The translations under genes were made by a program, and so were the position numbers. From Patescibacteria group bacterium (lineage in GTDB: Bacteria > Patescibacteriota > Minisyncoccia > Phycocordibacterales > UBA918), in the NCBI GenBank assembly GCA_039188945.1, contig JBCCYW010000004.1, positions 2,313 to 66,312 on the forward strand: DNA of 64,000 bases, given 5' to 3'. A model generated the notes under the pieces. The model saw only the letters and a program-made list of their open reading frames with translations. It ran no database searches and was not told the origin of the DNA. Below, piece after piece: positions 426-18,518 of the stretch (positions are counted from its first letter, which is position 1; the number at the start of each line of letters is the position of its first letter).

Positions 426-1376
426 TTACAACGAACACGCACCGTTTGTAACAGAAATGTCCCAATGAGTAGCTTCACGCACATATTCATTGCCACAACT
501 ATCAACATATCGTGGACCACCATGCGATCCTTCTCGAGTCCCAGATCTTGTCAGAGTAGTCTGGAGATAGTTATCAAGCGCCGGATTGTCGTCAAGATCA
601 ATCTTATATCCATTTGCATGACTAAAGTCTCCTCCAGCATGCCCACCTTCGGTCGCTCCAGTCACCACAATATTGCAGGTTGGGCAGGCGTTTCTAATAT
701 TTAGCGTTTGATTTACCGTATCTTCATTGATGCCACCCAAGGTCGTGCAACGATCGATTCCTGTGCAGTCAGTTCGAACTCCTGATGGGCCTTGGGTACT
801 GGTTACAACAATTCCAGCATTTTGCAGCTGACTCAGAGCTTCATCATGCTGTAGCTGCCCTTCACTCACCTCACCTGGCACAAAATCAGTCGGAGCTTCA
901 GTGGGGTCATCAAGAAAACTTTGCTCATCAACACCAGCTCCCACGAAGAACTGCACAGAGACTGTTTGTGTTTGGCACTGCACCTGTTGCCATGGTCCAT
1001 AGCCCGTAATTGTCCCTTGGTCACCAGGCAACAAGACTCGGAACAAAGTGTCGACCACAAGCCAAGCTGCCAAGACGATAATGAGGCCGATGATGGCGCT
1101 TGCAAAACGATCTTTGGCATATTCGCGCGCACTCACATCTCCAGCAGATATAACTAACTTAATACCAGCCACTGCCATCACAACTGCCACAAGCAGGAAT
1201 AAAATACCGATCAACCACGAAACAAACACATTCCCCATCGAAACCAAATTACAGAAGCTACAATTTGTTCCTTCGCAGGTGAGAAAATTTTGCGCCGTAA
1301 CCGACTCTGGGAGCGCTAGTCCAATGAAGAGAATCGTGATTGTGACAATAAGTGAAAATTTCATACTATAAATCAA
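426..1376 (-). CDS. Secreted VirB2/TrbC-like pilin N-terminal domain (signal peptide, CxxxxCxxC motif, TM-loop-TM) fused to C-terminal domain tentatively peptidase M15/VanY-like (SH-x-G...D, E-x-x-HW motifs) cell-wall hydrolase
   Basis: N-terminal ~110 aa paralogous to small pilins at 15540-17191 and to 1912..2829 (motif AIIGLII.LA.WL.VDT); C-terminal domain assignment is by weak motif recognition only. Confidence 0.6.
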   Translation of the reverse strand: MIYSMKFSLIVTITILFIGLALPESVTAQNFLTCEGTNCSFCNLVSMGNVFVSWLIGILFLLVAVVMAVAGIKLVISAGDVSAREYAKDRFASAIIGLIIVLAAWLVVDTLFRVLLPGDQGTITGYGPWQQVQCQTQTVSVQFFVGAGVDEQSFLDDPTEAPTDFVPGEVSEGQLQHDEALSQLQNAGIVVTSTQGPSGVRTDCTGIDRCTTLGGINEDTVNQTLNIRNACPTCNIVVTGATEGGHAGGDFSHANGYKIDLDDNPALDNYLQTTLTRSGTREGSHGGPRYVDSCGNEYVREATHWDISVTNGACSL

Positions 1377-1902
1377 TACTACCAGGACAAAAACTAAGCC
1401 CTAATTCTTTTGCTCCGAAGGTCTCGCTTACCCTTAAACTTGTAGCGACTCGAATGGTGAGCTGACATGCATCTGTCTCAGAAATACCTAGTTTTTCTAG
1501 CAGCTCTGCTTCAGCAGCTATCCTGGCTTGTTTAAGTGGTGGTGATTCAAGAGAGATAAGAAAACTCTCGTCAGGTGCGTGAAACAAGATTTCGTAGCCA
1601 GCTTCATTTAAGCTATTATCAGCAAATTTATAATTCTCTCCATCAAAAGTTACTGTTTCATGGAGTTTTTGTATGTTGTTAACGGTAACTGATCTACCCT
1701 GAGTACCTGACACTGAGATTCGATTTAATCCAGTTGTTACAGGAGGTGTCAAATTTGCCGACACCCCAAAGTCTTCACCAACCGGATCGTTATTAATAAA
1801 CTCATCGCTCTGCTCAGAGTCTCTGACTGACTCAACAGCCAAGAATATAATTCCGACGGCGAGTGCACTGATTATAATAATTGTTGCAAAGACTGTTTTC
1901 AT
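1366..1902 (-). CDS. Membrane-anchored secreted hypothetical protein (178 aa)
   Basis: ORF with N-terminal hydrophobic anchor; overlaps the start of the downstream gene by 11 nt and lies between the two pilin-fusion genes (operon on minus strand). Confidence 0.5.
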   Translation of the reverse strand: MKTVFATIIIISALAVGIIFLAVESVRDSEQSDEFINNDPVGEDFGVSANLTPPVTTGLNRISVSGTQGRSVTVNNIQKLHETVTFDGENYKFADNSLNEAGYEILFHAPDESFLISLESPPLKQARIAAEAELLEKLGISETDACQLTIRVATSLRVSETFGAKELGLSFCPGSIDL

Positions 1903-1911
1903 AATTGAAAA

Positions 1912-2829
1912 TTATGTTGCTAACCCACACACTCTCGCCGCAGACCAATCTGCCCATGGATTTGAAGGCTGACGGTTCGCTCTTCCATCATAAATTCTGC
2001 GAGCATTTGCTAAGTTACAACTCGGGGTTTTGGCAGCAGCAGCACACTGTTGGTAGAGACTCTGATTAACAATTGTTGCATTGTAGTTTCTGCCAGAAAA
2101 CGCTTCTGGGCAATTAAGAGTCCCTCCACCAGGACCACAGCCTCGAAGTTCATGAACGGAAATATTAATTTGAAATAATCCGAACGAAAAGGCTTCCCCG
2201 GTTGAAATACGGTCGGTTAAACTTTCGCTCTGTACGTTACCAGCACTCTCACCATTGCAAACCTGAGAAGCTTGTGACGCAAGTGTAGCGTCACCGAAAG
2301 TTGATTGTAAGCTATTTGCTGAACAAGGACCGCTCGAAATGACACTACAGCTACCATTTCCAGTTGGAGCACCAGAGCTTGATGGATCAATAGAAACACC
2401 TCCCCCGACAGTATTGAACGCTCTTGATTGCGGTTGGTCGACACACTGAATTTGATTCCAAGGGCCAAAACCACCAGTATTAAACAACAGTCGAACGACA
2501 GTATCTACAATCAGCCAACCAGCTAGCAATATGATTAAGCCGATAATTGCATTAGAGAGCATCTGTCGAGCTTTTTTATACTCAGTCACATTTCCACCAG
2601 ACATCACTAAGCGAAAGCCCGAGACAACAATAACAATTCCTGCTATTACTGAAACTATCGCGACAAAAAAGTTAACAATATTATTAACGAGCTGTACAAG
2701 GCGACAACTTTGACACTCATCGCCTGGCACGCCACTACACGGCACTAAGCCAGCTTGCGCAAATAGCTCGGCATTGGGTATAAGTAAAAAAGTAAAAACA
2801 ATAAGGCCGCCGATCAAAAGGCTTTTCAT
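1912..2829 (-). CDS. VirB2/TrbC-like pilin N-terminal domain fused to lysozyme-like / lytic transglycosylase (SLT)-like C-terminal domain
   Basis: Signal peptide, CSGVPGDECQSC motif, two TM helices with KARQMLSNAIIGLIILLAGWLIVDT (paralogous to other pilins in window); C-terminus has E-x-FSFGLFQIN and NYNAT resembling SLT motifs ES/GLMQ/AYNAG. Confidence 0.6.
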   Translation of the reverse strand: MKSLLIGGLIVFTFLLIPNAELFAQAGLVPCSGVPGDECQSCRLVQLVNNIVNFFVAIVSVIAGIVIVVSGFRLVMSGGNVTEYKKARQMLSNAIIGLIILLAGWLIVDTVVRLLFNTGGFGPWNQIQCVDQPQSRAFNTVGGGVSIDPSSSGAPTGNGSCSVISSGPCSANSLQSTFGDATLASQASQVCNGESAGNVQSESLTDRISTGEAFSFGLFQINISVHELRGCGPGGGTLNCPEAFSGRNYNATIVNQSLYQQCAAAAKTPSCNLANARRIYDGRANRQPSNPWADWSAARVCGLAT

Positions 2830-3113: not shown

Positions 3114-3196
3114 GCGTCGGTGGCAGAGTGGTCAATTGCAACGGACTGTAAATCCGTCGGATTTATCCTACGCTGGTTCGAATCCAGCCCGGCGCA
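3114..3196 (+). tRNA. tRNA-Tyr (anticodon GTA), long variable arm
   Basis: GCGTCGG acceptor pairing with CCGGCGC, anticodon loop CTGTAAA, T-arm GCTGG-TTCGAAT-CCAGC, 3' end CCGGCGCA (no encoded CCA). Confidence 0.85.
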
Positions 3197-3418
3197 CTAT
3201 GAAAATAAATATCAGCATCTTGCTGGTATTTATTTTTATCTTAGTGAGCCCTGGATTCGAGGTTTATGCCCGGGAGCGGTAGCGTACGGGTAAATCCAGC
3301 CTTATTTTACTTAGTAATACTTGACATAACATAAACTTCATGATAACATATGGTTGGCATTGCATTTCACTTACCAGATTGGCTGGTAACGTGGTAATGC
3401 ACCAGAAGGAGATTTGCC

Positions 3419-4508: not shown

Positions 4509-7217
4509 TTATACCTCTACCGAATCTTTGGTTTTCTTAGCGCTCGGTTTTTTAGTGGAGACGGTTTTTCGAGCTCTCTTCTTGATGTCGAACACCAGCT
4601 CATCATTCCCCTTTTTCATACTAACCTTCACGGTACCACCTTCAAGCATTCCCTCTCCTACCATCATGTTTGCTACTGGAGTGAGAATTTTACTCTGAAT
4701 GACGCGCTTGAGTGGTCGTGCACCCATCTTCGGGTCATAGCCTTCGCGAGCCAAGTAGTCCATTACATCTTTCGTCACCGTGAGCATAATTTCCTTATTC
4801 GCCAGGCGACGCTGTACTTCCCCTACCTGCATTTCAACAATACTGCGAATCGTTGAGGTACCGAGAATATCGAAGATAATTGTCTCATCGAGTCGGTTCA
4901 AGAATTCTGGTCGGAAAAAGCCTTTAAGCGTTTCCATTACCTTATCCTTCGCTTGGCCGTATTGCGCTTCTTCGCCATGGTCATGAGTAAAGCCAAAGTT
5001 CGACATTCGGTCGATATGCTCTGCTCCGATGTTTGAAGTCATAATAATGACGGTGTTTTTGAAGTTGACCTTCCGCCCCTTAGCGTCGGTAAGGTGACCA
5101 GAATCAAGGACCTGCAAGAGAATGTTAAACACTTCAGGATGCGCCTTCTCGATCTCATCAAGCAAGATCACTGAATACGGGCGATGGCGTACCTTCTCAG
5201 TAAAGCCACCACCCTCTTCATGACCAACGTACCCAGGCGGCGAACCAATCAATTTAGAAACTGAGTGCTTCTCCATAAACTCAGACATATCAATACGCAC
5301 CAACGCTTCAGTATCGTCAAACATGAATTCAGCCAGCGCTCGAGACAACTCAGTCTTTCCTACTCCGGTCGGACCAAGGAATAAGAACGAGCCGATCGGT
5401 CGATTCGGGTCAGCAATACCAGCGCGTGAGCGCTTGATAGCATCTGACACCAGCTTTACCGCATTATCTTGACCAACCACCTTCTCTTTTAGCTCTTCTT
5501 CCATACGCGCCAACTTGTTGGCCTCCGCCTCAAGCATGCGAGCTACCGGTACTCCAGTCCAGCGAGATACCACTGAGGCAATATCTTCTTCAGTAATTTC
5601 TTCTTTCAAGAGACGGCGGCTGCGCTGCAGTTTCTTGAGACGCTTCATCTTATCTGCAAGCTCTTTCTCCACGGCCGGGATCGTATCGTAGCGAATTTCA
5701 GCCGCACGAGTGAGGTCGGCAATTGCTTCAGCATTTTCAGCCTCAACCCGCAGCTCTTCGAGTTCTTTCTTAAGCGTACTCATTTCAGTGAGAGCCTCTT
5801 TTTCATTATTCCATTTCGTCTCCAAGGCTGAGGTCTTCTCACGCAATTCACCGACTTCCTTATCAATTTCCTTCAAGCGCGCTTTGAGCTTTCGTTTATT
5901 TTCGGATGTCTCCTCCTCTTTCTTCAAAGCTTCCTTTTCAATTTCCAAACGGCGAACCTGTCGATCAGCTACCACCAATTCCTCTGGCTTATTCTCGAGT
6001 GAGATTCGCAGCGCCGAAGCAGCTTCATCAATCAGGTCGACCGCCTTATCAGGCAAAAATCGATCGGTGATGTAGCGACTAGAGAGATTTACCGCTGAGA
6101 CTATGGCGTCGTCGGTAATGCGCACTCCGTGAAAGAGTTCATACTTCTCCGCAATACCACGCAAGATCGCGATCGCGTCTTCAGTGGATGGTTCATTAAC
6201 AAAGACTGGCTGGAAACGACGCGTCAGAGCTGGGTCGCGCTCGATGTGCTTCTGGTATTCCTTGAGTGTTGTAGCGCCAATCACGCGCATCTCACCCCGA
6301 GCGAGCGCCGGCTTGAGCATATTGCTGGCATCCATCGAGCCTTCGGCTTGGCCGGCGCCAACAATGGTATGTAATTCATCGATAAAGAGAATGACGCTAC
6401 CAGCTGAAGTTTCAACTTCTTTCATCACCGCCTTGAGGCGCTCTTCAAATTCGCCACGGAACTTGGTTCCAGCCACGAGGAGTCCGAGGTCGAGGGAGAG
6501 GATTTCTTTTTCTTTGACTGATTCTGGTACCTGAGAAAGAGCAATCTGTTGTGCGAGTCCTTCAGCAATCGCTGTCTTACCTACCCCAGCTTCGCCAATG
6601 AGAACTGGGTTGTTCTTCGTGCGACGCGAGAGAATTTGGATGACACGCTGCACTTCAACATCACGCCCAATTACTGGGTCGAGTTTATTCTCTTGCGCCA
6701 GTTTAGTGAGATTACGAGTGTACTTAGCGAGCGCCCGAAATTTCTTTGGTGCTTCTGCATCAGTGACATTATTCTCACGCAGCTCTTTGATGGTCTCAAT
6801 CACTCGACCCTTTTCAATTGAGACACGTTGCAAGACCTCAATCGCCGGACCGGGGAATTCAAGTGCTGCGATAAAAAGGTGTTCGACTCCTACATATGAG
6901 TCACCAAACTGCTCTGCCACCTGTCCTGAATGTTCTAGGGCTTTCGCGAGCTCAGGTGTGAGGTACAGCTGGTATGACTGTGAGATTGAGGAGCCCATGT
7001 CAGGACTTTCCAGCGCTTCAAGGAGTAGGTCGGTCAAGGCAATAACGTCGATATCGAGTCGGTCGAGCACCGAAATAACCGCACTCTCATCCTGCATGGT
7101 AAGAGCGGTCAAGAGATGAACCGGGCTGACGTGATTCTGGCCACGCTCAATCGCTAGTTCATGGGCTTTTCTAATGGCTTCTTTAGCTTTCGAGGTAAAG
7201 TTGTGAAAATTTGGCAT
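4509..7217 (-). CDS. clpB: ATP-dependent chaperone ClpB (two AAA+ modules with long middle coiled-coil)
   Basis: 902 aa; N-domain, Walker A GEAGVGKT and GPTGVGKT, coiled-coil M-domain, C-terminal GARPLKR motif. Confidence 0.95.
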
Positions 7218-7329
7218 AACGTTCTTAACTTCAGCTTACAAATTCAGTGAGGCGGTCGTTACAGTCGATGACGGTCGTACTAGTAGTACGGTTACAGTAA
7301 CCTTATATTACAACGTATTTTTAGGAGAG

Positions 7330-8538
7330 TCAAATACTGGTTGCCTTAGTTACGTGCTCCTTCAGCGTCTTCACCACGTAATCAATATCGGACTTCGAAA
7401 GTTCGGAACCGAGAGTGAAGCGGATGGTGGAGGTGGCGCGGGCGGCATCACCCGTAATGGTTTTTACTACTACGCTCTCACCGCCGCCCGCGCCACTACA
7501 CGCCGACTTTGTGCTCGCCGCAACCCCCTTACTATCAAGCACCACCACCGCGTACTCAGTGTCTAAACCAGGAATCGAAATATTTACATTATTTGCGACT
7601 CTATCCAGCCCAACCGGACCATTAAGCACCACTTCAGGAATTGCTTGCTGTAGCTCTGAAATAAAATAATCGCGCAGCTCTTTTGTTTCGCTCGCTCGCA
7701 TCTCATAATTTCCTTGTGCCAGTGAAAACGCTTCGACCCCTCCTACAATCAACGCAGTATTCTCGGTACCAGCTCGTACTCCGGTTTCTTGGCCGCCACC
7801 AAGAATCACCCCTTTGACCGACACACCGCGACGCAGCGCCAGCACGCCCATACCTTTTGGCCCAAAACACTTACCCGCATCGAGCGTCATCATATCTACC
7901 CCGAGCTGATCCATATCACACGAGAGCCATAGTGGAGCTTGTGCAGCATCGGCATGCAACAAGATATTCATATCTTGTTCCTGATTATATTTCTTAATCG
8001 CGCGAGCAATTCGTCGCACCGGCTGAACCACACCAACCTCACTATTTACGTACGCTAGCGATACCAGTACCACCTTCTCGTCAAGCAATTCCGATAGATG
8101 CTTTTCATCCACCTTTCCGGCTTCATCAACATTCACCCACGCCACCGTCACTCCCTGGTCCTCCAAATGCTTCAAAACTTCAATCACCGATGGATGCTCG
8201 AGCTTGGTTGAGATAATGGTGAGATCGCTAAACGACTTACCCTCTTCTTCTAGTAAATGTCGCACGTAGCCATAAATAGCTGTGTTATTAGCTTCAGTAC
8301 CACTACCGGTGAAGTAGACTCCTTCTGGACGAATATGCAGCAATCGGGCGAGTTTTTCTCGTGCTTCAGAAATTGCCACTTTAGCTTGCCTACCCTCAGC
8401 GTGAATCGCGCTCGGATTGCCAAACTGCTCTGCAAAGTACGGTTGCATAGCCTCGAGCACGCCTTTTCGCACCGGCGTAGCCGCCGCCATATCGAGGTAG
8501 AGTCGTTTTTTCTTCGGAACAAGAAACTTTCTAAACAT
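7330..8538 (-). CDS. Cysteine desulfurase (class V aminotransferase, NifS/IscS family)
   Basis: LYLDMAAATPV...SGTEANN...; start placed at MFRKFLVPKKKRLYLD (track ORF extends to 8604). Confidence 0.85.
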   Translation of the reverse strand: MFRKFLVPKKKRLYLDMAAATPVRKGVLEAMQPYFAEQFGNPSAIHAEGRQAKVAISEAREKLARLLHIRPEGVYFTGSGTEANNTAIYGYVRHLLEEEGKSFSDLTIISTKLEHPSVIEVLKHLEDQGVTVAWVNVDEAGKVDEKHLSELLDEKVVLVSLAYVNSEVGVVQPVRRIARAIKKYNQEQDMNILLHADAAQAPLWLSCDMDQLGVDMMTLDAGKCFGPKGMGVLALRRGVSVKGVILGGGQETGVRAGTENTALIVGGVEAFSLAQGNYEMRASETKELRDYFISELQQAIPEVVLNGPVGLDRVANNVNISIPGLDTEYAVVVLDSKGVAASTKSACSGAGGGESVVVKTITGDAARATSTIRFTLGSELSKSDIDYVVKTLKEHVTKATSI

Positions 8539-8646
8539 AGTAAAACTATCGTCGCATACCGTGCCAAATAAGCAAATATCTGCTATACTCGGCCCCGATT
8601 GCATCTACCGCCCGTATTGGTGCGGTTTATTGCTCTACAACCCTCT

Positions 8647-10152
8647 ATGGCGAAAAAAGGTAAGGCAACAACAGAAAACATCATCAAGCGACCACCGGTC
8701 GTGGTAGTTATGGGTCATATTGACCACGGTAAATCGACCCTCTTGGATTTCATTCGTAAAAGTAACGTGGTTGATGGTGAGGCTGGTGGCATTACTCAGC
8801 ACCTCTCAGCCTACGTGGTTCCTCATAAGACCAAAGAAGGCGCTGAGGAAACCATCACCTTCCTCGATACTCCCGGTCACGAAGCGTTCCAGAAAATGCG
8901 GCTTCGTGGCGCCGATGTAGCAGACGTAGCAATTTTAGTGGTGTCAGCTGAAGACGGTGTAAAGCCGCAGACCTTGGAGGCGCTTAAATCGATCCAAAAA
9001 GCAGAAATTCCGTTTATCGTTGCTATCAACAAAATTGATAAGCCAGGAGCAGATATCAACAAAACCCAGGCCAGCTTGATCGAGAACGAAATTTACATCG
9101 AAGGTATGGGTGGTGATATCCCATGGGCGCCAATTTCAGCCAAGACCGGTGAGGGGATCCCCGAACTCCTCGACTTAGTTATTCTAGCAGCCGACCTCGC
9201 TGAGCTTTCCGGGGACACCAACGCTCCAGCTGAAGGACAAGTGATTGAAGGTCACCTCGATAGTAAGCGCGGCAATACCGCTACTCTCATTGTGAAAAAC
9301 GGAACACTCAAAGGTGGTTTCTTTGTGGTTGCTGGTGCCAGTTTTGCGCCAGTTCGTATTATGGAAGACTTCAATGGCAAGCCGCTCAAGGAAGCCGGTC
9401 TTTCTACCCCAGCTGGTATTGTCGGTTTCAACGAAGTGCCAGAGGCTGGCCAGAGCTTTACAGTGGTGAAAAATAAGAAAGAAGCTGAAGCAGCGGTAGC
9501 CGCTTTCAATGAAGAAAGTGATACGGTGCGTAACTTTGCTGAGAGCAATCTGCCAATCGTACCAATTTTAATCAAAACTGATGTTTTGGGAACACTCGAT
9601 GCGATTCAGCACGAACTCGATAAATTTGAATCAGACCGAATTGCTATCCGCGTCATTGATAAAAGAGTCGGTGATGTTACTGCTACCGATGTTCAAAACG
9701 TCAGTGCCACTGAAAACGCCATTATCGTTGGGTTTAATGTAAAAGTAGAGCGAGCCGCTACCGACCTCGCTGAACGCTTGGGAGTAGAAATTGACACGTT
9801 CGACATCATTTACGAACTCGCCGAGTGGCTCAACACTGCCCTCAAGAATCGCACCCCAAAGATGGAAGAAGAGAAAGTAACCGGTAAAGCAAAGATCCTC
9901 AAACACTTTAGTACGCAAAAGTATACGCACGTTATGGGTGGTCGCGTTGAGGAAGGTGAACTAAAACTGGGACAGAACGTCCGCGTGATGCGTCGAGATA
10001 TTTTGGTTGGAAAAGGTGTGGTGAAAAACCTCCAGCAGATGAAGTCTGATGTTGACGTCGTAAAAGATGATGAGTTCGGTATGCAAATTGAATCACGCGA
10101 CGATATTGCACCCGGAGATATTATCGAAGCCTACGACATTGTTGTCACCTAA
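8647..10152 (+). CDS. infB: Translation initiation factor IF-2 (short form lacking N-terminal domains)
   Basis: VVVMGHIDHGKSTLLD G-domain, DTPGHEAF, NKIDK; start at MAKKGK chosen, track start 8599. Confidence 0.9.
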   Translation: MAKKGKATTENIIKRPPVVVVMGHIDHGKSTLLDFIRKSNVVDGEAGGITQHLSAYVVPHKTKEGAEETITFLDTPGHEAFQKMRLRGADVADVAILVVSAEDGVKPQTLEALKSIQKAEIPFIVAINKIDKPGADINKTQASLIENEIYIEGMGGDIPWAPISAKTGEGIPELLDLVILAADLAELSGDTNAPAEGQVIEGHLDSKRGNTATLIVKNGTLKGGFFVVAGASFAPVRIMEDFNGKPLKEAGLSTPAGIVGFNEVPEAGQSFTVVKNKKEAEAAVAAFNEESDTVRNFAESNLPIVPILIKTDVLGTLDAIQHELDKFESDRIAIRVIDKRVGDVTATDVQNVSATENAIIVGFNVKVERAATDLAERLGVEIDTFDIIYELAEWLNTALKNRTPKMEEEKVTGKAKILKHFSTQKYTHVMGGRVEEGELKLGQNVRVMRRDILVGKGVVKNLQQMKSDVDVVKDDEFGMQIESRDDIAPGDIIEAYDIVVT

Positions 10153-10153
10153 C

Positions 10154-10501
10154 ATGAACGATCGACACGACCGCGTTGCGAACCTTATCAAAGAGCTCTC
10201 CGCTCAGTTTATTCAACACGAAGCCAACACCGACCCGCTGATTACCGTGACCAAAGCCACTACCTCGCCCGACTATCGTAAGGTGACGATCTTTGTTACC
10301 ACCATCCCTGACGATCGAGAGGAGGACGCAATTATTTTTTTAAAACGCAGCGCCACTGAGCTGAGACGATTCCTCAAACAAAAAAGCAACCTGAAGATTA
10401 TCCCCCACCTCGAATTCTCGATCGACTACGGTGAGCGTCACCGCCAACACACTGACGAAGTATTTCGAGAAATCGATGATGAAAAGAAAACTGACTCCTA
10501 G
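10154..10501 (+). CDS. rbfA: Ribosome-binding factor A
   Basis: MNDRHDRVANLIKELSAQFIQHE... typical RbfA; follows infB as in many bacteria; in-frame internal ATG of track ORF 10067..10501. Confidence 0.8.
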   Translation: MNDRHDRVANLIKELSAQFIQHEANTDPLITVTKATTSPDYRKVTIFVTTIPDDREEDAIIFLKRSATELRRFLKQKSNLKIIPHLEFSIDYGERHRQHTDEVFREIDDEKKTDS

Positions 10502-10584: not shown

Positions 10585-10614
10585 TGCCCTAGTGCCTCTG
10601 GAAACTTTGCATTG

Positions 10615-10697
10615 TGCGGGCGAGAGGACTTGAACCTCCACGAGTTACCTCACTAGTGCCTAAAACTAGCGCGTCTACCAATTCCGCCACACCCGCA
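10615..10697 (-). tRNA. tRNA-Leu (anticodon TAG), long variable arm
   Basis: Reverse complement TGCGGGTGTGGCGGAATTGGTAGACGCGCTAGTTTTAGGCACTAGTGAGGTAACTCGTGGAGGTTCAAGTCCTCTCGCCCGCA. Confidence 0.85.
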
Positions 10698-10729
10698 TTT
10701 GTAACTGCACAAGTATACACTTGTACGTG

Positions 10730-10802
10730 TCCACCCACTAGGGCTCGAACCTAGGACCGTCTGCTTAAGAGGCAGCTGCTCTACCAACTGAGCTATGGGT
10801 GG
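10730..10802 (-). tRNA. tRNA-Lys (anticodon CTT)
   Basis: Reverse complement CCACCCATAGCTCAGTTGGTAGAGCAGCTGCCTCTTAAGCAGACGGTCCTAGGTTCGAGCCCTAGTGGGTGGA; C1-G72 acceptor. Confidence 0.8.
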
Positions 10803-10860
10803 ATATATAAATTGTGCGCCCGAGTTTACCGTAAAGCCTGTTGTAAAACAAGACGCATTG

Positions 10861-10947
10861 TGCCGGGAGCGGGACTTGAACCCGCACGCCGTTTGAAAGG
10901 CAGGGGATTTTAAGTCCCCCGTGTCTACCGATTCCACCATCCCGGCA
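10861..10947 (-). tRNA. tRNA-Leu (anticodon TAA), long variable arm
   Basis: Reverse complement TGCCGGGATGGTGGAATCGGTAGACACGGGGGACTTAAAATCCCC...GGGTTCAAGTCCCGCTCCCGGCA. Confidence 0.85.
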
Positions 10948-10969
10948 AAGGATGACTGGTGTATTTTGT

Positions 10970-11044
10970 CTCGACACAGGAGACTTACAGTCCCCGCAGT
11001 TTGTGTCCCACACAATCCTGCCTACCGATTCCACCATCCCGGCA
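10970..11044 (-). repeat. tRNA-like fragment: 22-23 nt exact copy of tRNA-Leu(TAA) 5' end (TGCCGGGATGGTGGAATCGGTAG), then hairpin GCAG-GATTGTGTGGGACACAAA-CTGC and an anticodon-arm-like GGGGACTGTAAGTCTCC; no T-arm
   Basis: Direct repeat of 10925-10947 located about 75 nt upstream (on minus strand) of the intact gene. Confidence 0.65.
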
Positions 11045-11114
11045 TGGAAGTGTGCGCAGCATAATAGCATAATTACTTGGTGAAAAAAGGCTCAAATGCT
11101 ACAGTATCGCTTAC

Positions 11115-11161
11115 GGCCAGGTGGCGAAGTAGATAGAGTGTGCTGGGAGCAGACTCTATCT
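11115..11161 (+). repeat. 16-nt exact copy of tRNA-Cys 5' end (GGCCAGGTGGCGAAGT) followed by hairpin AGATAGAGT-GTGCTGGGAGCAG-ACTCTATCT, 83 nt upstream of intact tRNA-Cys
   Basis: Direct repeat with 11198-11213. Confidence 0.7.
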
Positions 11162-11197
11162 GAGGTCTTAGACCGAATCGTTATCTGGCTGAAAGTT

Positions 11198-11269
11198 GGC
11201 CAGGTGGCGAAGTGGTAACGCTTCGGTCTGCAAAACCGACATGCACGGGTTCGATTCCCGTCCTGGCCT
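11198..11269 (+). tRNA. tRNA-Cys (anticodon GCA)
   Basis: GGCCAGGTGGCGAAGTGGTAACGCTTCGGTCTGCAAAACCGACATGCACGGGTTCGATTCCCGTCCTGGCCT. Confidence 0.9.
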
Positions 11270-11273
11270 CAGA

Positions 11274-12890: not shown

Positions 12891-13154
12891 GATGGGGGTA
12901 CTATACCCCGACCGTGCGGTCGGGCAATGGTGCCCACCATAAATAGTTCGCGGCTCGGGCTTTCATCCTCGCCGCCTTGAAAATAGAAAGGAAAACGCAT
13001 GCAGCGGTTTCTTGATCTACTCAAAACAATCGGAGAAAATTTCGGACCCTCCATTGTGAGGGCCTGGAGTCTTCTATCTTCGTTCGTTTCAAGTGCTTGG
13101 GCAGGTGTCACCTCCCAGTATAAAAACCTCGAACAGATCAAAATGGAGGTGTTG

Positions 13155-14612
13155 ATGAAATATCTCAAATTTACCCTCTTTGCAGGGCTGCTGGTAGCGC
13201 TCGCGTTCGTCGTTGGCACCTACCATGTACTGATCCTGGAATGGATTCAAGAGAACCCAGAACTCGCAATCGCACTATCTATTGCAATGGCAACAATCCT
13301 TGGTGTCTGGTTCTTGTGGTTCCGAAAAGAAAACGGACCAGATACACCTCAACAAGAAGATTCGGTTACAAAACCTGAGGAGAAAATCATGAAACTTCCC
13401 ATAACGGGTGGCGTCATGATTGTCGCCCTTGAACTACTGATCACCAGTGTTGGGACAATTGCTATTTCTCTCTATGAGACTGGCAAACTTCTCCCTCCAG
13501 CAATGGAGTGGTCTGCAGAGCTTAGCTTGGCAAACGTCTGGCTGATTCTGGGACTAGTCTACACTGGAGCGAGCTTTCGTTTCGACCAACTGATCCAAGC
13601 TGACCAACTCGCGGTTCGTACTATCTTTGGTCGTCCGACTGACGTCATGAGTTCTGGTGTTCCGATTCTGCCGCCAGGCATCGGAGATCAAATCGTACTT
13701 CCCACTGACGTGATCCAGGATGAACATCCTGGAGAACCTGAAAAGATCTTTAGAAATGAAGATCAGCAAGCGGTCCCTGACGGTATGGTGCCCCCGTTTC
13801 GAGTCACCTTCGGAGCTGCTATCAGTGAAGATGCAGCAAGGAATATGTTCAAAGACGAGTTCTCTGTTACTGACAGATACGGTAGAGAGATCGAGTTTAA
13901 AGCGGAGGTTGAAGAGGATCTGTTGTCCAAACGGGTAACTGGTGAAGTCGTGACAGTTTCACGCTACAGAATCGTGGAAGCGATTCCGTTTGTGAAATTT
14001 ATCGGAGGCACCAAACAGGCGAGTGGGCAAATTGAAGACGAAATCTTTGGAGTGGTTCAACGAATCTATCCGAAGATTAGTCTGGCGCAAGCTCTGCAAA
14101 ATATTGATTGGATGAATGCCATTCTTTATGAAGCAGCGAAACGGCGAGTAAGTGCTGTTGATGGTCGTCAAGCATGGGGTATTGATATTGAGGACGCGTT
14201 TGTCAAATCACTACCTCAGAGCCACAGCCTCAACAACTCTATCCAGAGTATTGCTGAAACCGAAGCTGATGCCGTAAACCGAGAAAGACTTGCCGAAACC
14301 GATCGTGTTGAGCGGGAAAAGGCCGGTCAAGGTGACGCAGCTGCAGAACAAGCACTGCTGGAAGCACGTGGTGATGGGTACCATTACATTGCTATAAAAA
14401 CTCGTGTTAAGGGTGCAGAACTTGCTCAACGGACTGATGCGGCACGTCAACTTGCTGAGGCAGGTAATGTTATTGTAACGGACGGAAACGGTGCCACCGG
14501 GTCACTTTTGGGTCTGATCACTGCGGGCGCAGCTGTTGCTAACCGAGAAAAGATCTCGGGCAACAGTCAGTTGCCCGAGGGAGAAACAAACCTAAACGAA
14601 AGTGAGAACTGA
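13155..14612 (+). CDS. SPFH/band-7 domain membrane protein (flotillin/HflK-like) with N-terminal TM helices
   Basis: GGAGGTG SD before MKYLKF start; SPFH-like core (VRTIFGR...VSRYRIVEAIPFVKF) and Ala/Glu/Arg-rich flotillin-like tail; family call by eye. Confidence 0.55.
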   Translation: MKYLKFTLFAGLLVALAFVVGTYHVLILEWIQENPELAIALSIAMATILGVWFLWFRKENGPDTPQQEDSVTKPEEKIMKLPITGGVMIVALELLITSVGTIAISLYETGKLLPPAMEWSAELSLANVWLILGLVYTGASFRFDQLIQADQLAVRTIFGRPTDVMSSGVPILPPGIGDQIVLPTDVIQDEHPGEPEKIFRNEDQQAVPDGMVPPFRVTFGAAISEDAARNMFKDEFSVTDRYGREIEFKAEVEEDLLSKRVTGEVVTVSRYRIVEAIPFVKFIGGTKQASGQIEDEIFGVVQRIYPKISLAQALQNIDWMNAILYEAAKRRVSAVDGRQAWGIDIEDAFVKSLPQSHSLNNSIQSIAETEADAVNRERLAETDRVEREKAGQGDAAAEQALLEARGDGYHYIAIKTRVKGAELAQRTDAARQLAEAGNVIVTDGNGATGSLLGLITAGAAVANREKISGNSQLPEGETNLNESEN

Positions 14613-15448
14613 TGTACACACTTCTTGTTGTAGTAGCTATAGTTGGTGGAATATGGCTACTACGGAGACCTCAAGCTGAACCAGCCGCGGCTCCAAAGCG
14701 CACCACTGAGAGTGCTGGCGAGAAAAGAACTGTCGAAGGTTACTTTCCTAGCAACATCATGAGTTCCATATTACCTGGTCAGGTGATTATTGGAGTAGCG
14801 ATACTTGTCCTTGCTTTAGCGCTTTTCTTCGGTGACCAGAACACTGGCATCTTTGAAAAGATTAGCGATTGGAAGATCTGGGAGGATCCTATTTTTCTCC
14901 TGATCAGCCTCATAGCTACTCTAGGCTTTGTTGGAGCTCATACAACAGCCGGACAAGGAACTGAGCTTGTAAAGGTGGCTCGCTGGGTATATCGGGTTTC
15001 GCTCGGTGTTCTGCTTCTGTATAGCGTCACTTGGTTCTTCGAGTCTAAAAAAGTTGAAGACCCAGTGAAACTAACTCTCGAAGCTGTCACTGCCTGCGCT
15101 CAAGATCGGAACCAATGTCCTAGTATCAATCTATTCGGAACTGATCAGTCAAACAAGACCACCAATCATGTTGTTTCGGCCAATCGAGTACCCACTCTGG
15201 CCGACTACGACCGTAGGGTCACAATCGGTGCCGATCCGGTTGGGTTCCGGATCGCCAACTCAGGTGGATGCGTGTTCGCACAGAAGGTCAGCGGTGGCAA
15301 CATCTTTGCCGAAGCGCTGTACCTCAACGAGACGCAGCGGGCAGCTGGGAAGCCGAATGGCTTTGCCTACAGTAGCCCAGATGGTGCTGTAATCAATGTC
15401 AATCGCCATGTCCACAAAGGACAAACCTGGCGGGGTACGACATGCTGA
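14612..15448 (+). CDS. Integral membrane protein with Cys-containing C-terminal extracytoplasmic domain, translationally coupled (ATGA overlap) to the SPFH gene
   Basis: 4 predicted TM helices; 4-nt start/stop overlap. Confidence 0.55.
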   Translation: MYTLLVVVAIVGGIWLLRRPQAEPAAAPKRTTESAGEKRTVEGYFPSNIMSSILPGQVIIGVAILVLALALFFGDQNTGIFEKISDWKIWEDPIFLLISLIATLGFVGAHTTAGQGTELVKVARWVYRVSLGVLLLYSVTWFFESKKVEDPVKLTLEAVTACAQDRNQCPSINLFGTDQSNKTTNHVVSANRVPTLADYDRRVTIGADPVGFRIANSGGCVFAQKVSGGNIFAEALYLNETQRAAGKPNGFAYSSPDGAVINVNRHVHKGQTWRGTTC

Positions 15449-15539: not shown

Positions 15540-15854
15540 CTATCGGTCGAGATTAATACAAGGCGAGCCTGTATTGGTTGTACAATTCTGGAGATTACCT
15601 CCCAACCCAAAGGTGCCCGCAAACACACTCAAGAGTGCATAGGCCGATACCATCACCAAGAGGCCAATAATCCCCCACAACATACGCCGTCTCCCCTCTT
15701 CCCGGGCTGTTTCATTGTTAGCGTTAGCGACAAATAAAAACCCACCCCACAAAAACACAAACAAAGCGACTGTGCTCAAGAGAAAAATAATCGGAAACAG
15801 AATAATTTCATTAAAACGAGCAACAAACTGAAATGCTAAATCCTGACCTGGCAT
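15540..15854 (-). CDS. VirB2/TrbC-like pilin family protein (104 aa, TM-loop-TM)
   Basis: Two hydrophobic helices separated by a charged loop, similar architecture to neighbouring pilins. Confidence 0.55.
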   Translation of the reverse strand: MPGQDLAFQFVARFNEIILFPIIFLLSTVALFVFLWGGFLFVANANNETAREEGRRRMLWGIIGLLVMVSAYALLSVFAGTFGLGGNLQNCTTNTGSPCINLDR

Positions 15855-15877
15855 TACTACTAAGTGTACCGTAGCTC

Positions 15878-15918
15878 ACCCAAAAACAAACAAACCCCGG
15901 TGGATGCCGGGGTTTGTT
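15878..15918 (-). terminator. Intrinsic terminator after pilin gene 15933..16340 (CAAACCCCGG-hairpin followed by TTTGTTTGTTTTT on minus strand)
   Basis: GC stem plus T-tract. Confidence 0.65.
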
Positions 15919-15932
15919 TGCTGGACGTGTGG

Positions 15933-16340
15933 TTAATTACCAACGTCAGGTCCTTGTGGAGCGTCAAGTGGACCAGTACCCACTTCAACACCGAAGGCGC
16001 CAGCGATAATGTTGACGAGGCTCCAGAGAGCAACAATCGCCACAAAACCAATGATGGCGTAGAGCATCAGGTTACGACCTTGTGCGCGCTTCTCATCGTC
16101 ACCACCACCAAGGATGAAGTACTGGATAACACCCCAGATAAACACCAATACCGCAAAAGCAATCGCCAATGGGATAAGGAAGTTATTTACGAGGTTAACG
16201 AGAGCTTCAATAAGCTGACCAAAGGTTCCAGTTTCACCTTGTAGCAAACCACTCTGCGCAAACACCAATACAGGTAGGAAAGCAAACAGACTTACCGCAC
16301 CTTTTACAATATTAATTTTAGACATAAATACGTTATACAT
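15933..16340 (-). CDS. VirB2/TrbC-like pilin (signal peptide, TM-loop-TM; 135 aa)
   Basis: LVNLVNNFLIPLAIAFAVLVFIWG...RAQGRNLMLYAIIGFVAIVALWSL paralogous to the N-termini of 426..1376 and 1912..2829. Confidence 0.7.
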   Translation of the reverse strand: MYNVFMSKINIVKGAVSLFAFLPVLVFAQSGLLQGETGTFGQLIEALVNLVNNFLIPLAIAFAVLVFIWGVIQYFILGGGDDEKRAQGRNLMLYAIIGFVAIVALWSLVNIIAGAFGVEVGTGPLDAPQGPDVGN

Positions 16341-16417
16341 TACTAATCAGTAACTTCCTGTGATTATACAAGAAAAAGCTGATTTTACCAGAGCATCTCT
16401 CCCCTCTGTGCATAACT

Positions 16418-16666
16418 CTAGCCAAATAAGCTGCGGCGCAAAAAGCCGATAATTGCCCACACACTCAGCATAATGACAATCACAATAATGCCTACCAGAG
16501 CGGTGTTTTGTCCCTCCTGGACCTTCGTAGCGTCTCCACCATTAAGGATCCACGCATCGATTAAGCGCCATATGAAATAGATTATGGTGAGGGTGATGAG
16601 TACCGGAATAGCGGTATTGATAAGGTTGATGAAAATTTGGATCAGCTCAGCAAATGTAGTAGGCAT
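16418..16666 (-). CDS. VirB2/TrbC-like pilin (82 aa)
   Basis: TM-loop(GGDATKVQEGQN)-TM, same family pattern. Confidence 0.6.
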   Translation of the reverse strand: MPTTFAELIQIFINLINTAIPVLITLTIIYFIWRLIDAWILNGGDATKVQEGQNTALVGIIVIVIMLSVWAIIGFLRRSLFG

Positions 16667-16678
16667 ACTAAAAATTAA

Positions 16679-17191
16679 CTAGCGTTGAAACTCAGTAACG
16701 ACATTCTCGATAATAGCTATAATCGCCTCAGCGCCGAGAATAATCACTCCACCAATCACGGCGTAGAGGAGGGCTCGCTGGGCTTCTTCAATCTGGCTGG
16801 AATTACCTTGGGCCATAACATATTTGAAGCCAGCATAAATAATGAAGAAGACGATGATCGGCACCATCAGAATCACTACAATATTGAGGATAGCGACCAA
16901 CAGACCTTCGAGCGAGCCGACGGTGAGGGGGTTACAGAGACGACTTGTGGTATCGCAGGGAGCAGTACCTCCGCCTCCACCAACAACGGGATTGTCTCCG
17001 CCTCCGCCTCCCAAGACTGGATTATCGCCCCCACCTCCTCCTAGAACTGGATTGTCGCCAGGACATGCAACCTCGTCTCCAAAAGGATCGAAACAGACTG
17101 CTGCCGCAGGTTCGGGCGTTATTAAGTAGAAACCAATACTTACTACTATGGTTACTGCGAGTACTATGACCTGACGAAACGTAACTGACAT
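16679..17191 (-). CDS. VirB2/TrbC-like pilin with N-terminal extension containing 3 tandem DNPVLGGGGG repeats and Cys motif
   Basis: C-terminal pilin core (LEGLLVAILNIVVILMVPIIV...EEAQRALLYAVIGGVIILGAEA); start moved to MSVTFRQ to avoid 47-nt overlap with upstream gene. Confidence 0.65.
   Translation of the reverse strand: MSVTFRQVIVLAVTIVVSIGFYLITPEPAAAVCFDPFGDEVACPGDNPVLGGGGGDNPVLGGGGGDNPVVGGGGGTAPCDTTSRLCNPLTVGSLEGLLVAILNIVVILMVPIIVFFIIYAGFKYVMAQGNSSQIEEAQRALLYAVIGGVIILGAEAIIAIIENVVTEFQR
16969..17059 (-). repeat. 3 x 30-bp tandem repeat encoding GDNPV(L/V)GGGGG within a pilin gene
   Basis: Seen directly: repeated ggattgtctccgcctccgcctccc / ggattatcgcccccacctcctcc units on plus strand. 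Confidence 0.8.
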
Positions 17192-17192
17192 A

Positions 17193-18518
17193 CTAGTATC
17201 CATTGCTAATACTAAACATAATAGCACGCACCGCCTCACTCACGCTGCTGCGGTTAGAAAGAATATCCTCTACCCCATCCGCAAAAGCTTCTGTCGCCAC
17301 AATTGGCTCTGGTGAAAGCCACCCAAACGCCGCAATCGCTGCACGATAGCGAATCTGCTCAATTGGGTTAAATGAGCCAGCAGTGAGCAGATCGCGGCGC
17401 GCTGGTGCCATAGACAAACTACTTGAGAAAAGTGAGAGCTGCTGTGGGCGACTAGCGATAGTTCTAATCGCTGCCAGCGCGCCGTTTTGATTCTGTGAAG
17501 CACGTAAGATTGCCAATCCATAGTAATCACCATAGGTACGCCGAACACTTGTACCCGCGGCCTGCGGAACTTCAGCAATATCAAAGTTAAGGTTTGGATT
17601 CAAGCGAGCAAGGTTGTCGTACTCACTTCCCAACCCCAAGTAGACAGCGAGATCACCAGCCGCAAAGGCGTTGGTATCTTGTGCCTGAACCCGATTCCAT
17701 GAATAGAGCGGGTTATTTACGGTCGAGAAGCTGGTAAAAAACTCTAGCGCACTGGTGAGCGGCCGCTGGACATTGGCGTTAACTGAACGATCAAGACTTA
17801 CCTGATAGGTACGACCATCTTCAAGCACCATCTGACTACCGCCCTGCAGTAAGAGCGTGCTCACAATCGCAAACGCGTTGGTAATATTACTGAATTCACC
17901 CAGCGCAATCGGACTCAATAAAATATTTCGATTAAAATCACGAACAACGACAGTTGGTACTACATCACCAACAATTTCTTCCCAGGTCCGCGGTGCAGCC
18001 GCGAAGTTATTGGCTGAAAAAATATCTCGATTCCAATACATAACCAAAGGATCAACCGCCAGCGGGGTGGCGTAAATACCATCTGAAAGTGTGAATATTT
18101 CTGCACCGTCAGCGTAGGTATCGAGATGGGTTCGTTGGTCGTACCCTGGAATTTGGCTATCGTACGGAATCGGAGTGATTTTCGTGCGTAGGTTCGCTAA
18201 CTCAGTATGTGGAATCAAAACTACATCTGGCGATCGCCCTTCAGCAATAGCATCGACCAACTCAGCCACAAAGGTTCGTTCGTCTAGCTGGCGATAGCTC
18301 ACCACCTGAAAATCTTCGACTTCAGCCCGAATATCTTGAATCATCTTATTGACAACCTGACGATCAAGCGTGCCCCAAATCTGTACCTGGTTGCCAAACA
18401 CTGGCGCATCAGTTTGCGATGATGGCTGGTAGGTTACAAACAGCACACCGCCAACAAACATCAGCACCACAAAAATGGCTATGAGGGCTATTTGAAATGG
18501 TCGAGGGCCGCTTTGCAT
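17193..18518 (-). CDS. Membrane-anchored extracytoplasmic protein, tentatively solute-binding-protein-like (441 aa)
   Basis: N-terminal TM anchor then large soluble domain; family assignment weak. Confidence 0.5.
   Translation of the reverse strand: MQSGPRPFQIALIAIFVVLMFVGGVLFVTYQPSSQTDAPVFGNQVQIWGTLDRQVVNKMIQDIRAEVEDFQVVSYRQLDERTFVAELVDAIAEGRSPDVVLIPHTELANLRTKITPIPYDSQIPGYDQRTHLDTYADGAEIFTLSDGIYATPLAVDPLVMYWNRDIFSANNFAAAPRTWEEIVGDVVPTVVVRDFNRNILLSPIALGEFSNITNAFAIVSTLLLQGGSQMVLEDGRTYQVSLDRSVNANVQRPLTSALEFFTSFSTVNNPLYSWNRVQAQDTNAFAAGDLAVYLGLGSEYDNLARLNPNLNFDIAEVPQAAGTSVRRTYGDYYGLAILRASQNQNGALAAIRTIASRPQQLSLFSSSLSMAPARRDLLTAGSFNPIEQIRYRAAIAAFGWLSPEPIVATEAFADGVEDILSNRSSVSEAVRAIMFSISNGY

Follow-up and report, generated by a model that had tools for sequence, protein, structure and literature searches.

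Patescibacteria account for a large share of uncultivated bacteria, and those that have been cultivated live attached to host cells. Any pilin-based filament must cross the wall of the cell that makes it. Among described systems, the VirB1-like hydrolases of type IV secretion systems (T4SSs), such as PrgK of pCF10, TraG of pIP501, TcpG and the CD419/TrsG families, are membrane-anchored, extracytoplasmic proteins that supply a glycan cutter and a peptidase to a secretion or pilus apparatus. In monoderm bacteria these enzymes pair a lysozyme- or SLT-type cutter with a CHAP, NlpC/P60 or LytM peptidase (PMC12102498). Here we describe an operon of three genes, C, MID and A, in a stretch of 64,000 nucleotides of a Patescibacteria group bacterium (contig JBCCYW010000004.1, positions 2,313 to 66,312; hereafter the window). 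Proteins C and A each join a VirB2-like pilin module to a domain of the kind found in wall-cutting enzymes, and C-MID-A is probably a Patescibacterial cell-wall-cutting cassette built on pilin modules, serving a pilin-based surface apparatus in a VirB1-like capacity.

The virB4 gene is widespread in the phylum Patescibacteria (PMC12102498). Among 1,948 assemblies with virB4 and VirB2-like pilins, a pilin gene was located near virB4 in 1,135, and many Patescibacterial pilin genes were also found away from virB4 (PMC12102498). Most genomes with VirB2 homologs had no recognisable VirB1, and the authors suggested that other glycosidases may substitute for it (PMC12102498). In the one genetically tractable species, life attached to a host requires the T4SS with its unusual VirB2-like pilins (PMC10633639). 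The essential T4SS cluster of Southlakia epibionticum, next to virB4, encodes a multi-domain lysozyme and a protein that resembles M15B peptidases by structural match, both of them stand-alone and alongside small PF18895 pilins (PMC10633639 supplement). The cassette is a concrete candidate for the missing VirB1 function, with wall-cutting heads fused to the pilin modules themselves.

The cassette differs from the VirB1-like hydrolases in consisting of two separate proteins, in being anchored by pilin hairpins where the hydrolases have a single transmembrane helix, in a peptidase family that varies between genomes, in the dedicated partner MID and in genes that do not adjoin virB4. An analogy with VirB1 had been drawn in a preliminary description of the window, and it is a reasonable one; we regard it as functional analogy and not as membership, because the enzyme types fit but the genes lie outside any T4SS cluster seen. 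The small VirB2-like pilins of Patescibacteria (PF18895; SEML1_0014-0019 in S. epibionticum) have their hidden Markov model (HMM) family, signal peptide and two helices in common with the fusions; they form arrays of divergent paralogs, within which the fusions are also located in some genomes. Unlike the fusions, the small pilins of the window lack the conserved N-terminal cysteine cluster, the G-P-W-x2-I-x-C motif, the linker and the head of 145 amino acids. The same fusion principle appears in precomputed Pfam architectures of relatives, in which PF18895 is combined with PF18896 (SLT_3), PF01464 (SLT), PF13539 (Peptidase_M15_4) or PF02557 (VanY), whereas A and C score for PF18895 only, the head of C lying below, and that of A outside, every Pfam model. 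A literature search outside subscription journals found no paper on the fusion, PF18896, the cassette or MID. The earlier view that this architecture is not a described family therefore holds for the literature, although PF18895 combinations were already present in the precomputed Pfam annotations. To the known T4SS wall hydrolases and VirB2-like pilins the cassette adds two uncharacterised families, LAS_A (the head of protein A) and MID, and a polymorphic architecture.

Organisation and conservation of the operon

The preliminary description had placed two secreted proteins of 316 and 305 amino acids, with an anchored protein of 178 amino acids between them, at positions 426-2829. Three open reading frames (ORFs) were found there, head to tail on the minus strand (Table 1), and all the motifs that had been quoted from them were recovered in the proteins (AIIGLIIVLAAWLVVDT, AIIGLIILLAGWLIVDT, FSFGLFQIN, NYNAT, FSHANGYKIDL and REATHWD). 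Protein A has 316 amino acids when read from a TTG at 1376, and the deposited copy has 312, from an ATG at 1364; residues of A are numbered here from the ATG, and adding four gives the number in the longer version. With the ATG start, C and MID are separated by 9 nt and MID and A by 1 nt, and because of these short gaps the three genes are taken to form one operon. Both A and C are deposited under the name 'MAG: pilin [Patescibacteria group bacterium]', on a contig of 68.5 kb.

Table 1. Positions in the window of the cassette genes, their domains and the small-pilin locus (residues of A in ATG numbering)
Feature	Position	Strand	Description
Gene C	1912..2829	minus	305 aa; PF18895 pilin module and lysozyme-like SLT_3-type domain; P0045
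C, signal peptide	2758..2829	minus	aa 1-24, ends ...LFAQ; hydrophobic; varies across family alignment
C, pilin module	2443..2757	minus	aa 25-129; C31/C39/C42, two hydrophobic helices, GPWNQIQC with C129
C, flexible linker	2353..2442	minus	aa 130-159; Gly/Ser/Pro-rich; pLDDT <50 at 132-156; length variable in alignment
C, lysozyme-like catalytic domain	1915..2352	minus	aa 160-305; invariant E194-S195, FSFGLFQIN block, 8 Cys
Gene B (MID)	1366..1902	minus	178 aa, membrane-anchored partner; P0129, hypothetical protein
MID, conserved extracytoplasmic domain	1369..1695	minus	aa ~70-178; invariant C146 and C172, near-invariant R127, 'GLSFCPG' tail (39-sequence alignment)
Gene A	426..1364	minus	312 aa; pilin module and LAS-type zinc-peptidase-like domain; P0001
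A, pilin module	975..1292	minus	aa 25-130; C30/C35/C38, two hydrophobic helices, GPWQQVQC with C130
A, flexible linker	870..974	minus	aa 131-165; pLDDT 37-56
A, LAS_A domain	429..869	minus	aa 166-312; H242, H249, D256, E297, H300, D302
Four small PF18895-family pilins	15540..17239	minus	104, 135, 82 and 186 aa; downstream of GyrA and SBP_bac_1
SBP_bac_1	17193-18518		small pilins directly downstream
GyrA	19180-21651		small pilins directly downstream

The gene order, consisting of a pilin-lysozyme fusion, a protein of ~175 amino acids and a second pilin fusion, was common to homologs on long contigs, also in distant genomes. A scan of one genome per species, with an 11-sequence alignment as query, found 286 relatives, and 79 loci were fetched and censused with local HMMs built from our own alignments. 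The cassette is embedded in a conserved neighbourhood of IF-2, class-V aminotransferase, ClpB, cassette, MiaA, ParB, RelA/SpoT, TopA, DprA and SerRS, and the window holds the side with ClpB, the aminotransferase and IF-2 (4509-10152). Loci with the cassette were labelled nearly all as Kaiserbacteria, Paceibacteria/Parcubacteria or other Patescibacteria, labels that for many loci are automatic. The C-MID-A trio is a conserved cassette of Paceibacteria-type Patescibacteria and is present in dozens of related species. Typical cassettes were also seen on contigs labelled Bacilli, Bdellovibrionales, Oscillospiraceae or Archaeoglobaceae (L015, L057, L060, L063 and L068), which are probably mis-binned Patescibacteria contigs, and many labels reading 'uncultured Candidatus Saccharibacteria' likewise look automatic.

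A VirB2-like pilin module at the N-terminus of A and C

Both fusions scored above the curated gathering cutoff of 26.6 bits for PF18895 (T4SS_pilin), with 38.1 bits for A and 42.1 bits for C, in which the match spans residues 44-110. At E <= 0.01 the same model matched every one of the 29 members of family A and 36 of the 37 members of family C. The similarity of the N-termini to pilins, proposed earlier from the letters, is thus significant against a curated HMM in both proteins. Over their N-terminal 167 amino acids A and C are 37% identical (E 4e-26); their C-termini are unrelated. Hydrophobic segments were located in both at 1-24, ~37-79 and ~85-118, and in the models a short charged loop connects two helices (about 41-76 and 81-115).

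Both families have three clustered cysteines at the mature N-terminus and, after helix 2, a conserved G-P-W-x2-I-x-C motif. The cysteine motif CxGxxCxxC that had been ascribed to both proteins is exact in A, but C has CxG-x5-CxxC. We infer that the four module cysteines act as a staple between the outer ends of the hairpin. Cysteine counts are even in every protein of the cassette (10 in A, 2 in MID and 12 in C), which fits disulfide-bonded extracytoplasmic proteins. The layout of A and C, a signal peptide followed by a VirB2-like hairpin, a disordered linker of 30-35 residues and a compact enzyme domain that is probably rich in disulfides, is strongly supported. In addition, NCBIfam model NF045849, which describes pilin-like conjugal-transfer proteins of Mycoplasma integrative and conjugative elements, gave sub-threshold scores of 29.1 and 20.8 bits (cutoff 40) on the N-terminal modules of 426-1376 and 1912-2829, and this match hints that the pilin module of Patescibacteria may be connected with monoderm conjugation systems.

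The head of protein C has a lysozyme-like fold

A homolog search with protein C returned 84 sequences. In the 37-sequence family alignment E194 and S195 were invariant and the F-S-F-G-L-F-Q-I-N block was conserved. PF18896 ('SLT_3, Lysozyme like domain') matched 16 of the 37 aligned homologs, with a best E of 3.2e-8, and a profile of the C head alone matched the PF18896-bearing relatives with 95.7% probability (E 1e-8). The family profile aligned weakly to human lysozyme, placing E194-S195 over the catalytic Glu35-Ser36 and a conserved Ser at the position of Asp53, the second carboxylate, as in single-carboxylate enzymes. The SLT-like motifs reported earlier are present, including FSFGLFQIN and NYNAT, but the catalytic-type Glu is E194 in 'NGESAGN' and not the non-conserved Glu that precedes FSFGLFQIN.

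Residues 160-305 of the AlphaFold model of C had a predicted local distance difference test (pLDDT) score of 94-98. The best structural matches were Bombyx c-type lysozyme (score 9.2) and Bdellovibrio DslA (8.0), the closest bacterial one, followed by Slt, MltC, phiKZ gp144 and MltE (7.3-7.7) and EtgA (6.8). The head was thereby placed within the lysozyme fold, and the preliminary suggestion that this C-terminal domain resembles peptidoglycan hydrolases is borne out by HMM and structural similarity. Neither of the two outcomes named in advance as refuting the preliminary interpretation was observed. Compared with c-type lysozyme, DslA (Bd0314) and the family-1 lytic transglycosylases (Slt70, MltC, MltE, phiKZ gp144 and EtgA), the C head differs in having Ser for Asp53, eight cysteines and the fusion to a pilin module. 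There is strong support for the C head as an SLT_3-type lysozyme-fold domain and putative cutter of glycan strands with an invariant Glu-Ser pair; it may be either a hydrolase or a lytic transglycosylase, between which its sequence does not discriminate. Single-sequence searches with the C-terminal halves of A and C against Pfam (E <= 10) and PDB sequences returned nothing useful.

The head of protein A carries a zinc-peptidase signature

In the case of protein A, 44 homologs were found by the homolog search. Residues H242, H249, G252, K254 and D256, and likewise E297, H300, W301 and D302, were invariant or nearly so in alignments of LAS_A that comprised 24 to 150 sequences. Within this set H249-x6-D256 and the upstream H242 were invariant, E297 was near-invariant and H300 invariant to near-invariant. 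H-x6-D together with E-x2-H is the zinc-ligand and catalytic pattern of VanX/VanY-type (LAS) enzymes. There is strong support for this zinc-peptidase signature being intact in the head of A, which is probably a domain of the LAS fold.

No relationship to the M15 peptidases was recovered at the level of HMMs. LAS_A of the window had no match at E <= 10 in Pfam, including PF02557 (VanY), PF08291 (M15_3) and PF13539 (M15_4), and M15 models of Pfam matched none of 150 LAS_A representatives (E <= 0.001) and none of 46 diverse domains (E <= 10). Comparison by hhalign with the VanY and M15_4 heads of sister fusions gave non-significant E values of 0.02-0.03 from shallow alignments, in which VanY versus M15_4 itself reached only 27%. 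Against PDB sequences the profile of family A gave only sub-significant matches to hedgehog proteins (E about 0.5), and with profiles of the C-terminal domain alone even these were lost. The best structural match of the A model was the hedgehog N-domain. LAS_A has in common with the VanX/VanY peptidases of MEROPS M15, with M74 MepA and with the hedgehog N-domain the H-x6-D and E-x2-H motifs, an upstream conserved His and, more tentatively, a predicted hedgehog-like fold, and has no significant sequence or profile similarity to solved LAS proteins or to the Pfam M15 models. It differs from the LAS metallopeptidases by additional invariant K, W and D residues (G-Y-K-x-D, H-W-D), which set it apart as a family of its own with at least 2,384 sequence clusters. 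The SH-x-G...D and E-x-x-HW residues on which an M15/VanY-type peptidase had been suggested are real and the zinc pattern is conserved, but an HMM link to M15 was not found. Because of this, and because no named model covers the domain, LAS_A is filed as a putative peptidase that works like those of the M15 type and not as a member of M15.

An exhaustive HMMER search detected LAS_A in 2,384 cluster representatives at E <= 1e-3, including 241 at E <= 1e-30. Among the best 150, the Pfam partners were T4SS_pilin (PF18895) in 62, PG_binding_1 in 4, PG_binding_3 in 3 and SLT in 2, with WXG100 and eCIS_core once each. From these combinations LAS_A looks like a broadly used wall-targeting domain that lacks a Pfam family definition. 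The domain was also observed in short leader-only proteins and beside Peptidase_C39 (P0133-P0278).

MID accompanies the SLT_3-type lysozyme domain

MID has a single N-terminal hydrophobic anchor (residues 1-28), a variable linker and a conserved domain of ~110 residues. Profile searches of Pfam, NCBIfam, PHROGs and PDB identified no relatives. Four relatives were found by the homolog search, which was limited by its k-mer step, and 59 in the fetched loci with the local HMM. MID directly follows the SLT_3-type lysozyme fusion in 53 of 60 loci, with two more cut by contig ends, and follows none of the six canonical SLT (PF01464) fusions. In one locus (L002) MID is absent and the protein in the first slot is a 'headless' module of 139 amino acids (9525-9944) that ends just after W-N-E-I-Q-C, a stopping point which identifies the junction of module and head as a natural breakpoint.

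Across 34 loci the divergence of MID correlated with that of the lysozyme head (r = 0.72) and less with that of the pilin module of the same gene (r = 0.43), and the head and its own pilin module were nearly uncorrelated (r = 0.20). The correlation between MID and the head is taken as supportive only, because shared ancestry adds to such correlations. It is well supported that MID is a membrane-anchored protein with two cysteines that travels and co-diverges with the SLT_3-type lysozyme domain, and it may act specifically on the lysozyme head, as a regulator, an inhibitor or a positioning partner.

Exchange of heads on near-identical pilin modules

In the fetched loci 31 large pilin fusions followed MID. 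Their heads were NlpC/P60 (7), LAS_A (6), a second M15-like type termed M15x (5), M15_4 (3), VanY (2) or unassigned (8), and one NlpC/P60 head was confirmed by Pfam with 23.5 bits against a cutoff of 23. Every head that could be assigned was of a peptidase type. On this census the first slot of the cassette holds a constant putative glycan cutter and the second an exchangeable putative peptide cutter, so that a widespread cassette of conserved gene order combines the two. At least six types of head were found in one syntenic slot.

Fusions with unrelated heads carried pilin modules that were 93-100% identical over 110 residues. Examples are VanY and M15_4 heads (P0033 and P0034, 97.3% identity of the N-terminal module), VanY and NlpC-P60 (P0033 and P0037, 96.4%), LAS_A and SLT_3 (P0022 and P0040, 97.3%) and SLT_3 and SLT (P0040 and P0042, 97.1%); in a further pair both heads were VanY, only 50% identical to each other, on modules that were 100% identical (P0113 and P0116). 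Such near-identical modules with unrelated heads are a sign of recent domain swapping and leave a clear recombination signature at the junction of pilin module and enzyme head. The two modules within one cassette ranged from 31% to 100% identity (median 49%), reaching 100% in three loci and 43% in the window. In L005 a perfect direct repeat of 300 nt (9106-9405 and 10073-10372) covers the pilin modules of adjacent fusions with different heads; it would reflect gene conversion, an assembly artefact being less likely. The window has no 300-nt direct repeat of this kind. Judging from these identities, gene conversion appears to homogenise the two pilin modules in several lineages.

A constant module with recombining heads resembles, at least in its sequence pattern, the polymorphic effector systems. 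A conserved N-terminal module joined to recombining, unrelated C-terminal domains, as in polymorphic toxins, was found here with VanY, M15_4, NlpC/P60, LAS_A, SLT_3 and SLT domains. Polymorphic toxins such as CdiA-CT, Rhs, LXG/WXG100 and the Xanthomonas X-Tfe/X-Tfi pairs also have a conserved N-terminal module, recombining C-terminal enzymes and a small gene downstream, the last of which in the cassette follows one of the fusions. The cassette differs from them by its pilin-type membrane hairpin, by heads predicted to act on peptidoglycan only, by a small gene for the lysozyme head only and by its stable core synteny.

Association with small-pilin arrays

Small ORFs at 15540-17239 encode four further members of the pilin family, three of which passed PF18895 and all of which matched the local HMM of the pilin module. 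The proposal that the fusions begin with the same module as these small pilins therefore stands; the block had been given as 15540-17191 and in fact ends at 17239. Four of the fetched loci (L057, L070, L073 and L079) have the lysozyme fusion, MID or both within an array of small pilins or next to one. The pilin block follows GyrA in L070 and L079, where ORFs of 811 and 443 amino acids lie upstream; the former is GyrA, and the intervening ORF is a solute-binding protein in L070 and has no Pfam match in L079. In L057 the block follows a solute-binding protein and BipA. The small-pilin array of the window occupies the same position, after GyrA and the solute-binding protein, 13 kb from the fusion operon, and this common position indicates that in other lineages the fusion is itself part of this array.

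Further features were noted at these arrays. The order of solute-binding protein and pilins recurs in L057 and L070, and the solute-binding protein may be a conserved neighbour of pilin arrays. In the small pilin of 186 amino acids (16679-17239, minus strand) a Gly-rich tandem repeat, GGGGDNPVLGGGGGDNPVLGGGGGDNPVVGGGGG, is found, with additional cysteines, before the pilin module. On the plus strand (12999-15448) two membrane proteins without a Pfam match, 537 and 278 amino acids long, converge on the array.

Proposed role of the cassette

We propose that Sec export and cleavage of the signal peptide would leave both ends of the hairpin outside the membrane, so that the enzyme heads would be extracytoplasmic, and that the conserved cysteines would hold the outer ends of the hairpin together. 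The glycosidase and the peptidase may then jointly open peptidoglycan. The combination of an SLT domain with a peptidase is that of the VirB1-like PrgK and of TraG of pIP501, here apparently split over two VirB2-like scaffolds, which could co-assemble with the small pilins or dock beside them. MID would bind and restrain, or position, the lysozyme head on the surface of the producer.

Several observations weigh against this proposal. Protein C of the window itself has no PF18896 match, even at E <= 10. No T4SS ATPase, channel or VirB4 was found among the larger ORFs scanned in the window, and no T4SS gene within 10 kb of the related loci examined, in a flank screen that was incomplete (precomputed Pfam annotation for 5 loci, a crude Walker-motif filter over 79 loci and Pfam searches of 10 flanking ORFs). 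In these scans of window and related loci the PF18895 proteins of the cassette were not encoded beside virB4. The helical hairpin, which distorted the fold searches of both the A and the C model, structurally resembles many unrelated hairpins, and for that reason its fold adds nothing to the HMM evidence. Pilus formation by PF18895 proteins is itself a prediction, a 16-kDa head on each subunit would crowd a VirB2-type filament, and enzyme activity, the function of MID and the disulfides are predictions only.

As for which wall is cut, we put it at a little short of an even chance that the host wall is included among the targets, as suggested by the rapid swapping of the peptidase head; a role restricted to the producer's own wall is possible and is held more tentatively. 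Points in favour of a host-directed role are the interchangeable heads, the small gene next to the lysozyme fusion and the occurrence elsewhere of LAS_A behind a WXG100 leader; the stable location in the core genome together with the short tether favours the own wall. If the heads act on host walls, the type of head could help to predict the host range of uncultivated lineages. It is conceivable, although unlikely, that the cassette forms an enzymatic pilus, in which pilins bearing the lysozyme and a host-matched peptidase co-polymerise with the small pilins and drill the host wall, MID conferring self-immunity. Such a pilus would represent a new class of polymorphic effectors with the pilin itself as delivery domain, and would account for the absence of a recognisable VirB1 from most Patescibacteria that have VirB2-like pilins.

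The exchange of heads can also be read as the mark of a polymorphic effector-immunity system aimed purely at the host, in which the pilin module would serve for delivery, either polymerising into the T4SS pilus or being carried by it, the heads would be toxins that digest the host wall for attachment, feeding or killing, and MID would be the immunity protein that shields the producer's own glycan strands. The constant N-terminus and variable C-terminus fit this well, with modules 93-100% identical under unrelated heads and even one fully identical pair under VanY heads of 50% identity, as does a small gene that lies directly downstream of the lysozyme fusion, tracks the lysozyme domain and is lost with it. 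Elsewhere LAS_A is found behind a WXG100 leader and with eCIS_core, the closest bacterial structural match of the C head is the predator enzyme DslA, and the combination of a conserved glycan cutter with a variable peptide cutter would correspond to bacterial walls, in which the glycan is conserved and the stem peptides vary. The stable housekeeping neighbourhood and apparently vertical inheritance are, however, unlike those of typical mobile toxin loci, no immunity-like gene lies downstream of the peptidase fusions, and the PF01464-type fusions occur without MID. MID resembles no known lysozyme inhibitor or immunity protein, and the mirror-tree signal can come from shared ancestry alone. On balance we doubt that the cassette is purely an effector-immunity system.

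The same neighbourhood, with ClpB, IF-2, MiaA, ParB and TopA among the core genes around the locus, would suit ordinary autolysins that the cell uses to grow and divide, in which the pilin-like hairpin is a recycled membrane anchor with no link to a pilus or to secretion. No VirB4 was seen nearby in the scans made, the short linker would hold the heads near the producer's own wall, and modular shuffling is common among autolysins. A mere anchor is difficult to reconcile with the four loci (L057, L070, L073 and L079) that have the lysozyme fusion, MID or both within or next to small-pilin arrays, or with gene conversion that homogenises the modules of both fusions, which suggests selection on the module to match a partner; and swaps among peptidases that cut different bonds, on near-identical modules, are hard to square with a fixed housekeeping role. 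We consider an autolysin function improbable, and the wall-cutting cassette of a pilin-based apparatus remains the preferred interpretation.

Catalytically dead heads are a still weaker candidate. Hedgehog- or lysozyme-like folds might act as adhesins for wall sugars or peptides, making the proteins adhesive minor pilins, and the best structural match of A, the hedgehog N-domain, is itself not a proven peptidase; moreover, no HMM ties protein A to active M15 enzymes. Yet the zinc ligands and catalytic-type residues form a complete set that stays invariant or near-invariant in hundreds of divergent sequences, the Glu-Ser pair of the lysozyme head is invariant, and alternative heads in the same slot score to models of active enzymes (NlpC/P60, just above the Pfam cutoff, VanY and M15_4), all of which makes loss of activity very unlikely. 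A remnant phage lysis cassette, with a holin-like two-helix protein fused to endolysins and a spanin-like protein, would account for the superficially holin-endolysin-like order of a two-transmembrane segment and a muralytic domain, but was rejected as hardly credible because PHROGs matched none of the three proteins and a tblastn search of C against 50,697 phage records was empty, and it conflicts with the housekeeping-gene synteny conserved across many species and with the signal peptides that precede the hairpins.

Other features near the operon

Scans for promoters and terminators around the operon were uninformative. A tRNA-Tyr gene (3114-3197) on the other strand immediately precedes the operon, and four tRNA genes (Leu, Lys, Leu and Cys) are clustered at 10614-11270.

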